The notes beneath the pieces are model-generated. The model was not told where the DNA came from. It saw only the letters and a program-made list of their open reading frames with translations, and searched no databases. Below, in pieces: positions 12,367 through 15,552 of a stretch of DNA of 64,000 bases (its first letter is position 1; each line of letters begins with the position of its first letter). Position numbers and translations under genes: made by a program. Location of the stretch: contig OY969763.1 of the NCBI GenBank assembly GCA_963702845.1, forward strand, positions 1,216,001 to 1,280,000. The letters are read 5' to 3'. Source of the stretch: an uncultured Verrucomicrobiae bacterium. GTDB taxonomy: Bacteria > Verrucomicrobiota > Verrucomicrobiia > Limisphaerales > Palsa-1400.

Positions 12367-12560
12367 CTATCGTACGCTTGCGTTGAGTTGACAAGGTGCT
12401 TTTTTTGGAACCTTCGATCGAACCTGTGGACTGGTGGCGTGAATCGGTTTCCTTCTGCAACACGCATAAATAAATATTGACAGGTTTTTCACTACATACT
12501 ATTAGCAGTGTTTGCTGCGGGTGCATACTACAAGGCAAGGTGTAGCTGCGGCGACCGTTA

Positions 12561-14306
12561 ATGAAAAGGAAGGCCGATGGGCAGTTAAATTTGCTTCCGC
12601 TTGTTCCACAGCAGGCTGAATCTGAGCTTGTAGCTAAGTTGAACCCGGGCACGGCGCAACCGGAGTCGAAACCCGAACAGAGCCTGGTTCTCGTCGTCAA
12701 ACGCGACGGCACTTCCGAACCATTCAACAAAACGCGGATAACCCTCGCTCTCGAAAGCGCTTTTAAAGCCGTCCGCGATATTCCGGTAGACACAGCAATG
12801 ACGGATTCGATGATGGAATCCGTCACAAATCTTGCCGAGAAAATTTCCAAACGCGTTCTTGAAGACACTGCTCAAGGAACGACGCTCGATGTTGAATACA
12901 TTCAGGACGTTGTCGAAAACCAGTTGATGTGCGACGGCTATCTCACTGAGGCGCGCCGCTACATTCTCTATCGCGAAGATCGGCGCAAAATCCGCGAACA
13001 AACGCCAAGCGCACTTCCAGAAGCACCGGCCGCACCCGTTGAAGAAACGCCTAACACAAATTTATTGCTGAAGGTGATTTATGCGGAAGCGCTTCCTGAC
13101 GCTTCGTCTGCAAATGACCTTGCGGCAAGTCTCCGTCGCAATTTCAGCTACGCGATTCAGGATGCGGTTCACAACGACCAACTATCGCCGGAATTGCTGA
13201 TGTTCGATTTAGAACATCTTTCCAGTGCATTGCAGTTGGATCGGGACCGATTGATTTCTCGGGCGGGGGTTGAATGGCTTTACGCAAACTGTCTTGCGCG
13301 TGAGTGCGACCATTCTATCGAAACGCCGCAGTATTTCTGGATGCGCGTGGCGATGGCTATGGCCGCCAGCGAGGACGACCGGGAAGCGCGTGCGCTGGAG
13401 TTTTATGAAGTCCTGTCCACGTTGCGGTTTTTACCATCGGAAAAACTTCTTCGGACCAGCGGCCGTTCCAGCGCGATCGCCAATCGGATGCTGGCCGACG
13501 TTGAGGACTTCGATGCTTCTGCTCGTGTGGCTGGCCATGTAAATATCGCGGCGCACATCCAGAACGGGACGCTCGATGAATTGCTGCTCTATGGAACCAT
13601 TTCGAGCGCGGTCCGCTTGCTCGATAACGCGGTGGAGTTAGCCGGCGCGAAGTTGAATGCCGCAGCTATTCACGCGCGCGAATACCGCGACATTGCGCTC
13701 GGTATCGTCGGGTACGAAAAAGCGCTGGAGTCACTCAATATTTCTGCCGATACCGATGCAGCGATGAATTACGTCGAACGCGCCGCGGAAAGCATCGCGT
13801 ATTACACAACGCTCGCGTCCGCCACTCTGGCTGCTGAGCGCGGTTCTTTCCCGGGACATTCCGATTCGAATTGGAACATCGGTGCACTACCATTTGAATC
13901 GTTGAAACTTTTGCCCGCGCAAAGCGGCGGTTCACCCAACGTGAATTTCTCAAAGGAATGGCTGGCAGTGCGTGCTGCCGTGCGGCAGTACGGAATGCGA
14001 AATGGCCACATCCTTGCGCTCACGCCTGCGCAAGTGATCGAAAAAATAATCAGCGATGCCGCACCGCGTTTATCATTCAGCGCGCAACTCAATCGCCTCG
14101 TGCGCTGTCGCAAGTGGATTGATGGCAGGGTGTGGATCACGTTGCCCGAAGACCTTGCCGGTCCCGACCTGGAGCAGGCCTATTTGCTGGCTCAACAGCT
14201 CGGCATTCGTCCGTTTACGTTGCCGGTTCGTGTCACGATTTCAGAACCATTCACCGACGCTGCCGCTGCGACGAAGGTTCTGAAGAGCATTGAAAGATCT
14301 TCGTAA
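12561..14306 (+). CDS. ATP-cone protein with a condensed, catalytically dead ribonucleotide reductase alpha-like domain
   Basis: ATP cone VVKRDG..EPFNKTRI...VEYIQDVVENQLM...ARRYILYRE; NrdA-like segments ETPQYFWMRVAM, R.IALG..G, LAAERGSF, GMRN and KWID. The SSC, NLCxE, CNL, YY and C-terminal Cys-pair motifs are absent. Confidence 0.8.
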   Translation: MKRKADGQLNLLPLVPQQAESELVAKLNPGTAQPESKPEQSLVLVVKRDGTSEPFNKTRITLALESAFKAVRDIPVDTAMTDSMMESVTNLAEKISKRVLEDTAQGTTLDVEYIQDVVENQLMCDGYLTEARRYILYREDRRKIREQTPSALPEAPAAPVEETPNTNLLLKVIYAEALPDASSANDLAASLRRNFSYAIQDAVHNDQLSPELLMFDLEHLSSALQLDRDRLISRAGVEWLYANCLARECDHSIETPQYFWMRVAMAMAASEDDREARALEFYEVLSTLRFLPSEKLLRTSGRSSAIANRMLADVEDFDASARVAGHVNIAAHIQNGTLDELLLYGTISSAVRLLDNAVELAGAKLNAAAIHAREYRDIALGIVGYEKALESLNISADTDAAMNYVERAAESIAYYTTLASATLAAERGSFPGHSDSNWNIGALPFESLKLLPAQSGGSPNVNFSKEWLAVRAAVRQYGMRNGHILALTPAQVIEKIISDAAPRLSFSAQLNRLVRCRKWIDGRVWITLPEDLAGPDLEQAYLLAQQLGIRPFTLPVRVTISEPFTDAAAATKVLKSIERSS

Positions 14307-14307
14307 G

Positions 14308-15552
14308 CTATTGCGCGATTGTCATCAGCGCGTGCTCTCGTTCCAGCAACGTGGGATGCGAGTAATAGAAGCCACTGTAATACGGATGCGGCGTCAGGTT
14401 GCTGAGATTTTTTTCGTTCAACTTGCGTATGGCGCCGATCAACGATCGCACTTCAGACATCACGCCTGCCGCGTAGGCGTCGGCCTCATACTCGTACTTT
14501 CGCGAGAACATGTGGGACATCGGCGAAATCCAAAACGTCACTGTTCCCGCAAGCAATCCGAACAATAGAAACGCCGGCACGACACTCAACGTCGAAAATC
14601 CAAACGCTTGATAAAACCATGCCTGCTTGGCCAGGACAGAGATGATAAAAAAACCAATCAACGTCGCGACTGCCGACCAAATCATCGTCTTGGGAATGTG
14701 ACGTTTTTTGTAATGGCCGATTTCGTGGGCCAGAACGGCTTCCAGTTCGGTTGGCTGTAGTTGCTCCACCAGCGTGTCAAATAGAACAATTTTCCGGAAA
14801 TGACCGAACCCGGTGAAAAACGCGTTAGAATGGCGCGATCGTTTGCTGCCGTCCATCACTTGAATGTCTTTGGCCCTGAAACCCGCGCGTTCACCCAATC
14901 CCAGCAACTGCTCCCGCAACGGCCCTTCTGGTAACGGAGAAAACTTGTTGAACAGCGGCATGATCACGATCGGCGCGAGAACGAGCATGATGAGTTGAAA
15001 CACCATCATGCAACCCCACGCCCATAACCACCACCAGTCACCCAACCAATCGACCAGTTTGAAAATCAACCAAAGCAGCGGAAACCCAATGGTGATGCCG
15101 AGCAACAAACCTTTGATGCGATCCATCCAGAACGTTTTCGTAGTCGTCGTGTTGAACCCGAACCGCTGCTCCAAATTAAACTGTGAATACCAGTCAAACG
15201 GCAGGTCAGGCACGGTGAGTAAAATACTGGTTGCCACAACAAATGCCGCGCCGGCCCACATTGCATGGCCAAGCGAATTCTGAAACACGTTGTAAAACCA
15301 GGGGAGAACGCCACTGAACAAGACAAGCGCCAACACGATCACGCTCCACGTGAGTTCAACGCAGTGGAACTTACTTTTCGCGAGTGTGTAGTCGACGGAC
15401 TTTCTGTAATTCTCCGTCGTGACGACGGCTTTGAATGCTTCGGGCACCGCCGCGGCATTCGCGCGGACATGTTTTTGATTGAGAAGTTCCAGCCAGAGCT
15501 GCGCGAGCCAACGCGCGCCGAGCAGCACGGCGAATATGATCATTACAGTCAC
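14308..15552 (-). CDS. M48 family (Ste24-like) membrane zinc metalloprotease
   Basis: DGSKRSRHSNAFFTG, HEIGH zinc motif, EYEAD, SHPTLLER and multiple TM helices. Confidence 0.92.
   Translation of the reverse strand: MTVMIIFAVLLGARWLAQLWLELLNQKHVRANAAAVPEAFKAVVTTENYRKSVDYTLAKSKFHCVELTWSVIVLALVLFSGVLPWFYNVFQNSLGHAMWAGAAFVVATSILLTVPDLPFDWYSQFNLEQRFGFNTTTTKTFWMDRIKGLLLGITIGFPLLWLIFKLVDWLGDWWWLWAWGCMMVFQLIMLVLAPIVIMPLFNKFSPLPEGPLREQLLGLGERAGFRAKDIQVMDGSKRSRHSNAFFTGFGHFRKIVLFDTLVEQLQPTELEAVLAHEIGHYKKRHIPKTMIWSAVATLIGFFIISVLAKQAWFYQAFGFSTLSVVPAFLLFGLLAGTVTFWISPMSHMFSRKYEYEADAYAAGVMSEVRSLIGAIRKLNEKNLSNLTPHPYYSGFYYSHPTLLEREHALMTIAQ

Follow-up and report, generated by a model that had tools for sequence, protein, structure and literature searches.

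The dead nrdA gene and its product

The window considered here comprises 64,000 nucleotides from an uncultured Verrucomicrobiae bacterium (GenBank assembly GCA_963702845.1, contig OY969763.1, positions 1,216,001 to 1,280,000), and its subject is a forward-strand gene encoding a protein of 581 amino acids, referred to as P0001. This protein derives from a dual-cone NrdA, the large (alpha) subunit of class I ribonucleotide reductases (RNR), and is unable to do RNR chemistry. It is the most reduced form of a conserved pseudoenzyme family, dead but very probably selected.

The reading frame runs through 581 codons without interruption, and its start codon is backed by a conserved MKRKADGQL N-terminus, with Met in 17 of 17 aligned N-termini. 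An earlier note on this DNA had described an ATP cone followed by NrdA segments in an open frame, and Pfam agrees, placing an ATP-cone domain at residues 44-142 and an RNR all-alpha domain at residues 233-303, with both RNR domains (PF00317 and PF02867) above cut-off. The barrel domain is represented only by profile positions 230-395 of 523, at residues 325-496. An assembly artefact, i.e., the collapse of a normal nrdA, is ruled out because 16 independent database proteins (50-86% identity) carry the same deletion.

For mapping the deletions, an intact relative of 943 amino acids (P0063) served as reference. Four of its blocks are missing from P0001: residues 125-188, corresponding to the inner cone; residues 346-562, from the SSC motif through the finger loop and including the specificity region; residues 763-826; and residues 901-943, the C-terminal Cys tail. 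The large gap is spanned by about 20 unrelated residues (303-322). In terms of the ten-stranded RNR barrel, the 217-residue deletion would comprise the five strands of its first half, the finger loop and the dimer helices, which bear the specificity site. The N-x-C-x-E motif of the finger loop, the specificity site and the alpha2 dimer helices are gone, as are the redox Cys pair (SSC, CNL) and the C-terminal CxxC; furthermore, STPTLFNAG reads SEKLLRTSG, APT reads TPA and KTTYY reads RPFTL. In RNR alpha subunits, the finger loop carries the catalytic Cys, and the YY pair is located on the last strand of the barrel (PMC9531940). The three substitutions, the replacement of a whole block by about 20 residues and the lack of C-terminal Cys residues had all been noted before and are borne out by the alignment; the four Cys residues that remain (124, 244, 249 and 516) are at none of the catalytic positions. 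Concerning CNLGS, the loss of the motif stands, but it aligns to RVAGH, one residue to the left of the VAGH proposed earlier.

The nearest solved structure is the dual-cone NrdA of P. aeruginosa (PDB 5IM3; sequence E 7.6e-52, Foldseek E 6e-24). An AlphaFold2 model of P0001, with a mean predicted local distance difference test score (pLDDT) of 79, begins with a disordered stretch (residues 1-40) and the cone, which a flexible linker joins to a compact core, the latter matching RNR alpha chains with VIA-align Z values of about 25-30 over some 310-380 residues. A second AlphaFold run, restricted to the compact clade to which P0001 belongs, returned an unchanged topology at lower confidence (mean pLDDT 69; residues 429-488 below 50). 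The strands of the P0001 model at residues 323-328, 378-383, about 485-487 (weak), 524-527 and 550-552 may be read as the second half-barrel. Against NCBIfam, all RNR families fall far under their cut-offs, e.g., NF005544 and NF009029 with 270-276 bits versus 965 and 1350.

Conservation within the compact clade differs between the segments of the protein (Table 1), with mean identities of 0.70 for the N-terminal 18 residues, 0.34 for the adjoining linker, 0.74 for the cone, 0.28 for the second linker, 0.68 for the alpha domain, 0.65 for the half-barrel and 0.80 for the C-terminal helix. In the latter, D566, A568, A570, K572 and V573 are present in 18 of 18 members, and in the all-alpha domain E294 is found in 18 and R298 in 17 of the 18.

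Table 1. Features of the dead nrdA locus (window positions).
Feature	Position	Strand	Basis and remarks
-35 hexamer TTGACA of conserved promoter-like element	12477..12482	+	promoter comparison
NrdR-box-like site 1	12497..12510	+	tandem-box position weight matrix (PWM); overlaps -10-like TATTAG (12500-12505)
NrdR-box-like site 2	12529..12542	+	32 bp beyond site 1; weak here, strong in several relatives
Dead NrdA-derived gene	12561..14306	+	monocistronic; product 581 aa (P0001); open reading frame (ORF), Pfam, alignment and synteny
N-terminal element, residues 1-18, GQL[DN]L[IL]xLxxxQ	12561..12614	+	conserved, predicted disordered; like sliding-clamp-binding motif
Outer ATP cone, residues 44-147	12690..13001	+	Pfam PF03477; aligns to 5IM3 cone 1 and 5OLK; two-dATP type
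Variable linker in place of deleted inner (non-binding) cone	13002..13055	+	alignment, conservation
All-alpha domain, residues 166-302, ending in altered substrate-phosphate motif SEKLLRTSG	13056..13466	+	Pfam, alignment, model
20-residue junction	13467..13526	+	alignment; stands for ~240 residues (first redox Cys, dimer helices, specificity site, first half-barrel, thiyl-radical finger loop)
C-terminal half-barrel remnant, residues 323-555, without second redox Cys or YY pair	13527..14225	+	AlphaFold2, VIA-align
C-terminal helix, residues 564-580, no CxxC	14250..14300	+	best-conserved segment of compact clade

The ATP cone

By alignment, the outer cone of P0001 keeps both the nucleotide-binding and the cone-cone interface residues. 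Fourteen cone columns (K47, R48, D49, F55, E112, Q115, D116, E119, M123, R132, I135, Y137, R138 and R145) are near-invariant, namely in 16-17 of 17 sequences of the compact clade, 40-41 of 41 longer dead forms and 53-55 of 55 intact NrdA proteins, these counts leaving out nine sequences whose cone start escaped the search pattern. In the cone of L. blandensis NrdB, the cone-cone interface and dATP residues are D73, M80, K89, I92, I93, R95 and R102 (PMC5794259), which map, in this order, to P0001 D116, M123, R132, I135, L136, R138 and R145 (R102 by spacing). Moreover, the P0001 cone aligns with both solved two-dATP cones (5IM3 cone 1 and 5OLK), and the cone that was removed is the inner, non-binding one; inner cones bind no ligand and drift (PMC9669993). 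To judge from these residues, it is highly likely that the cone of P0001 binds adenine nucleotides.

Selection on the dead gene

The ratio omega of nonsynonymous (dN) to synonymous (dS) substitution was obtained throughout from pairwise Nei-Gojobori estimates, which are near saturation where dS exceeds about 1.5. Comparison of P0001 with three relatives gives omega values of 0.154 (95% confidence interval 0.11-0.21), 0.144 (0.10-0.19) and 0.178 (0.11-0.25) at dS 1.1-2, the two closest pairs (0.154 and 0.144) being at dS 1.1-1.4. Intact NrdA proteins range from 0.09 to 0.26 in their 12 closest pairs. In a neutral simulation with substitutions only, an open frame survived in 6 of 1000 runs at 0.1 substitutions per site and in 0 of 1000 at 0.25. 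Disordered linkers outpace the motifs beside them in evolutionary rate by a factor of 2-7. Selection on dead NrdA is clearly purifying, yet looser than on housekeeping genes. The earlier proposal of a retained, non-catalytic protein is thus upheld by the omega of 0.144-0.178, the 16 orthologues sharing the deletion, and the intact cone residues.

Distribution and origin of the pseudoenzyme family

Besides the 16 proteins that share the large deletion (50-86% identity), the homologue search returned about 40 further proteins of 680-880 amino acids without catalytic motifs; close homologues carry source names of Verrucomicrobiota, order Limisphaerales. In the ESM Atlas, an automatic RNR name (score 0.92) is attached to a Verrucomicrobiota cluster of 73 members. 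Among the 31 genomes of the bacterial family, dead NrdA is present in 20, and the genus of the present genome keeps it in 3 of 3 genomes. N-x-C-x-E, the GGLGND/TNG specificity motifs, YY and the terminal CxxC are found in 0 of 20 dead forms of the family versus 17 of 17 intact NrdA proteins fetched from sister families; the specificity/alpha2 dimer region is deleted in 20 of 20. Some longer dead relatives retain individual Cys residues, never the full set, and the deletions across the family are graded, from 973 to 563 amino acids.

In a 40-row tree, the 19 rows of the family form one clade (97/100), with the compact clade on a long stem (0.98). Sister to this family clade are three dead, less-deleted forms (99/99), including G210 and G253 of another family, a grouping which may be due to long-branch attraction. 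In a sample of 351 genomes of the order, one of them unpublished (G220), nrdB was found in 60; when the order lists were compared by eye, strong class I-type matches without nrdB outside the family were those of G210, G253 and G043, the latter being rejected as a further dead NrdA, as it is an intact NrdJ-type enzyme. Among the nrdB-less matches fetched from the phylum, 12 of 13 are NrdJ-type with an intact N-P-C-x-E. Dead full-length forms exist elsewhere in the phylum, i.e., in G739 (no nrdB match) and as P0160 and P0193 (source names Verrucomicrobiota or Puniceicoccales), which suggests, tentatively in view of the long branches, that dead NrdA arose more than once.

Two variants of dead NrdA deserve mention in their own right. 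In genus g4 (L038, L047 and L048, of G006, G005 and G007), the dead forms keep all three active-site Cys positions and have lost Asn, Glu, YY and nrdB; residual thiol chemistry is conceivable in these proteins. In G739, the dead NrdA (L128, C1:4024500-4029500) is a near full-length, multi-cone form in a complete genome without nrdB, and directly downstream of it lies another ATP-cone gene, which, going by its motifs, presumably resembles a monomeric class II RNR.

The RNR complement of the genome

The genome consists of one 6.03-Mb contig and is 89.8% complete. Within it, intact nrdA, nrdB or nrdD genes were not found; the sole working RNR found is a class II NrdJ of 1043 amino acids that lacks an ATP cone, and nrdR is present separately. 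The earlier note had correctly stated that no nrdB is adjacent to the dead gene, and the separate, intact nrdAB for which it proposed to look was not found. Its suggestion of a decoy or hetero-oligomeric regulator of the native class I RNR is not supported in that form: no native NrdA or NrdB was found for P0001 to decoy, and the dimer/specificity region is deleted. Across the family, nrdB (PF00268) was found in 0 of 31 genomes, 18 of which are at least 90% complete, with the same search being positive in 8 of 14 controls, and no nrdB remnant was seen in the 23 dead-NrdA loci compared. An RNR barrel gene occurs in 30 of 31 family genomes and nrdD in one; all 21 NrdJ proteins of the family that were examined keep SAC, NPCSE and CNL. 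A tblastn search with P0001 gave no match to NrdJ at E<=1.

A third ATP-cone gene of the genome (L005, G000 C1:1353868-1355403) encodes a cone fused to a P-loop kinase-like domain, which we take to be uridine-kinase-like; its last ~100 residues look frameshifted, possibly owing to a long-read indel.

Promoter, NrdR-box-like sites and riboswitch

In 23 of 23 dead-NrdA promoters, TTGAC is located 72-101 nt 5' of the start codon, mostly followed by TATTAG after 16-18 nt. A sigma-70 consensus scanner did not call this conserved promoter in front of the P0001 gene, likely because the second hexamer lacks the final T. The training set of the tandem-box PWM consisted of 13 boxes in front of intact nrdA genes, first located by means of a consensus. 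Genome-wide, it places the nrdJ promoter at rank 1, a site upstream of nrdR at rank 8 and the box pair of the P0001 gene at rank 70 among about 6.0 million positions; in 23 of 23 dead-gene promoters, the highest tandem-box score is above the 99.99th percentile of the respective genome. As in an NrdR regulon, two palindromic boxes span the promoter in tandem at a distance of 31-32 bp, and the genome has nrdR; binding of NrdR to these boxes is predicted. As dATP rises, the NrdR tetramer binds two boxes approximately three helix turns apart (PMC9110341), with which the spacing of sites 1 and 2 is compatible. At window positions 12529-12545, a tandem CAAGG repeat, apparently a duplication, weakens box 2, and close relatives are free of it.

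Cobalamin riboswitches, which shut class Ia RNR operons off when vitamin B12 is present, precede 11 of 17 intact nrdA genes versus 0 of 20 dead ones. In Streptomyces, such riboswitches control class Ia RNR operons (PMC12528414). Without this element, the dead gene looks set for expression beside NrdJ and not in its place.

The N-terminal peptide and the sliding clamp as a candidate partner

The N-terminal element stands out from the adjoining linker by its mean identity (0.70 versus 0.34) and its dN (0.07-0.16 versus 0.34-0.97), at a pLDDT below 50. In a wider form, Q-L-x-L-x-x-hydrophobic, it precedes the cone in 20 of 20 dead forms of the family and in 13 of 17 intact enzymes; G210 and G253 have it as well. 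Within the compact clade, the element takes the form QL[DN]L[IL] (QLNLL in P0001) and is followed by a variable insertion of about 20 residues before the cone; this form resembles what we take to be the clamp-binding consensus, QL[SD]LF. The likely clamp clients of this genome end in QMDLF and QLELF. Clamp-binding motifs dock in pockets of the beta sliding clamp, DnaN (PMC11253446). Matches to QL[DSN]L[FL] number 16 in the roughly 3970 ORFs of the genome, so the motif match alone is weak.

When DnaN was modelled in complex with P0001 residues 1-150, a score of 0.33, rated as weak, was obtained versus 0.00 for the best control, no interface being returned; the runs had at least 42% of contacts in common and a partner pLDDT of at least 63. 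The mark applied is reached by 116 of 157 solved complexes and by 2 of 215 mismatches, with 18 of the 157 solved complexes and both mismatches at 0.60 or under. The beta sliding clamp may tentatively be named as the leading candidate partner in the compact clade.

Two observations concern clamp-motif-like sequences elsewhere. NrdJ (L001, G000 C1:4429788-4432919; relatives L134-L153) carries Q[PTQ][ED][LM]x[MIL]P in 21 of 21 family proteins examined; this likewise clamp-motif-like stretch sits in a variable linker before the C-terminal Cys cluster. At G000 C1:4028408-4029517, the longest ORF covers only a C-terminal part of 370 amino acids ending in QMDLFG, which hints at an upstream frameshift or assembly indel; we assume this protein to be MutS-like.

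A proposed nucleotide sensor and its alternatives

Judging from its sequence, dead NrdA probably now serves, next to the B12-dependent NrdJ, as a sensor of nucleotides; the "dNTP sensor" idea of the earlier note is the best reading here, too. Its more specific form, a nucleotide-gated cone-cone switch within the dNTP regulon, is given an even chance. It would start with a dual-cone class I alpha subunit that was retained after the lineage lost nrdB and shifted to NrdJ. At high dATP, NrdR would repress the dead gene, which, having no B12 riboswitch, would be made together with NrdJ when dNTPs are needed. The cone would bind two ATP or dATP molecules and toggle self-association via helices 3-4, as in P. 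aeruginosa NrdA; since the normal alpha2 interface is deleted, a monomer/dimer switch would be expected, not an alpha4 ring. In the final and weakest step, a partner that is neither NrdA nor NrdB may read out the switch via the C-terminal helix and the QLxL peptide at the N-terminus.

Several observations weigh against this reading. The half-barrel is conserved nearly like the cone (0.65 versus 0.74 identity), which is unexplained by a pure cone sensor and lies beyond the reach of the model except as a folding or docking role. With regard to the clamp, the P0001 motif ends in L/I and not in F as the QMDLF and QLELF termini of this genome do, and outside the compact clade the element presumably misfits the five-residue clamp consensus; the pass of the DnaN complex is weak and may reflect memory of solved clamp-peptide complexes. 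On the regulatory side, box 2 is weak in this genome, and the riboswitch is also missing from 6 of 17 intact genes, with the sister lineage not settled, so that its "loss" from dead genes can only be inferred. The search for dead nrdA came up empty in 11 of 31 family genomes, among them 7 of the 18 of high quality; in G005, most of the cone is lost, and G021 has a frameshift near residue 670. Finally, neighbouring genes in the same pairs are under tighter selection than the dead gene (omega 0.04-0.13), and dead genes of other genera range from 0.16 to 0.47, with dnaN at 0.03-0.07 and ordinary neighbours at 0.21-0.29 in that comparison.

An extension of the sensor idea takes in both the cone and the half-barrel, which together might form a dATP sensor tethered at the replication fork by the N-terminal clamp-binding peptide and linking dNTP supply (NrdJ, NrdR regulon) to the replisome; we consider this doubtful. 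If true, some active RNRs would be clamp-tethered, too, because intact NrdA has the element as an ancestral trait, and the NrdJ of this family carries the conserved QxE[LM]x[MIL] linker motif.

Somewhat less probable is a nucleotide-independent scaffold, for which only a second, non-catalytic docking job of the ancestral NrdA, towards a replication or cell-cycle protein, would have been kept, with the cone serving as a docking surface. This would account for the similar degree of conservation of every folded segment (0.65-0.80) and for an N-terminal element that is older than the catalytic loss (13 of 17 intact enzymes) and survives in G005 without most of the cone; also, viral R1 pseudoenzymes serve as protein-binding scaffolds (PMC5469499). 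However, the cone residues in contact with phosphate and base vary no more than in active enzymes, in contrast to inner cones, which do not bind and drift.

Still less credit is given to a trans-acting regulator or decoy of NrdJ, which would bind this cone-less enzyme and lend it a dATP off-switch. NrdR-box-like pairs are present at both genes, and the dead gene is free of the B12 riboswitch, under which expression of one would preclude that of the other. Nonetheless, the alpha2 dimer/specificity region is deleted in all dead forms of the family, NrdJ is distant in sequence, the genes are unlinked, and no alignment column separates the NrdJ of 13 genomes with the dead gene from that of 8 without.

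That the gene is a dispensable relic, eroding stepwise and constrained only against misfolding or toxicity, is improbable. Such slow decay would fit the graded deletions, the genomes in which the gene was not found, the one frameshifted and one cone-less member, and an omega of up to 0.47 in the closest pair. It is at odds with an omega of 0.14-0.19 at dS above 1, the same deletion junction in 17 proteins, linkers evolving faster than the flanking motifs, a conserved promoter with its boxes, and new clade-specific invariant residues (E294, D566 and K572); moreover, outright deletion is clearly possible, yet the gene is kept throughout the genus. An anti-phage decoy, i.e., a dead alpha subunit trapping phage class I RNR subunits or draining dATP upon infection, would suit the patchy distribution, an evolution faster than that of housekeeping genes and a host without a class I RNR of its own to poison, but is very unlikely given the housekeeping neighbourhood in conserved order within the genus, the host NrdR-box-like sites that are kept, and the lost segments for alpha2 assembly.

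Relation to known systems and significance

With active class Ia NrdA/NrdAz (5IM3), P0001 shares the outer two-dATP cone, the all-alpha domain and the C-terminal half of the barrel; it differs in being without the thiyl, redox and relay residues, the specificity/dimer region, the inner cone, the C-terminal Cys pair and an nrdB partner. It is not a member of the active NrdA, failing five defining features. Among shortened relatives, the NCBIfam family NF005401 (PRK06948, "ribonucleotide reductase-like protein") has a similar profile length (604 positions); membership of P0001 was rejected at 47 bits versus a cut-off of 906, over one stretch.

The R1 homologues of betaherpesviruses, UL45 of human cytomegalovirus (HCMV) and M45 of murine cytomegalovirus (MCMV), are likewise catalytically inactive RNR large subunits that have been reused (PMC5469499). 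They are viral and act on host immune signalling, whereas the P0001 gene resides on a bacterial chromosome; unlike them, P0001 keeps the allosteric cone and NrdR-box-like sites, with half of the barrel lost. In NrdR and L. blandensis NrdB, an ATP cone attached to a non-catalytic body acts as a nucleotide-gated switch of oligomerisation (PMC9110341, PMC5794259), to which P0001 is likened by sequence. Unlike NrdR, it has no Zn-ribbon or other DNA-binding domain and, unlike NrdB, no ferritin-like radical domain. No description of a bacterial dead NrdA was found in a literature search that left supplements (RNRdb tables, RNR phylogeny) and subscription papers outside.

If the sensor reading is true, RNRs have a conserved non-catalytic role in bacteria that is able to outlive catalysis, and the natural deletion series of the family would mark the parts needed for it, i.e., the outer cone, the N-terminal peptide, the all-alpha domain and the second half-barrel. 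The family is also a clean system for the ATP cone free of a specificity site and offers a handle on the old question of RNR-replisome coupling. Where sources name dead-NrdA proteins, these are mostly called "RNR alpha subunit", and therefore the number of class I RNRs in these Verrucomicrobiota is overestimated.

Gene surroundings

The P0001 gene has as its neighbours a divergently oriented gene for an outer-membrane protein and a convergent one for an M48 peptidase, in a neighbourhood of housekeeping genes (nagA-like, outer-membrane protein, M48 peptidase, RNase R) whose order is conserved inside the genus only. Across the 23 loci compared, no conserved partner gene was found, synteny being limited to within genera. 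Terminator-like matches occurred only at chance level in the scanner. At window positions 14306-14308, the stops of the P0001 gene and the convergent M48 peptidase gene lie one base apart, and the genes have no terminator between them. In the relative G013, a 6S RNA gene (L016:3661-3842) lies just downstream of the dead nrdA.

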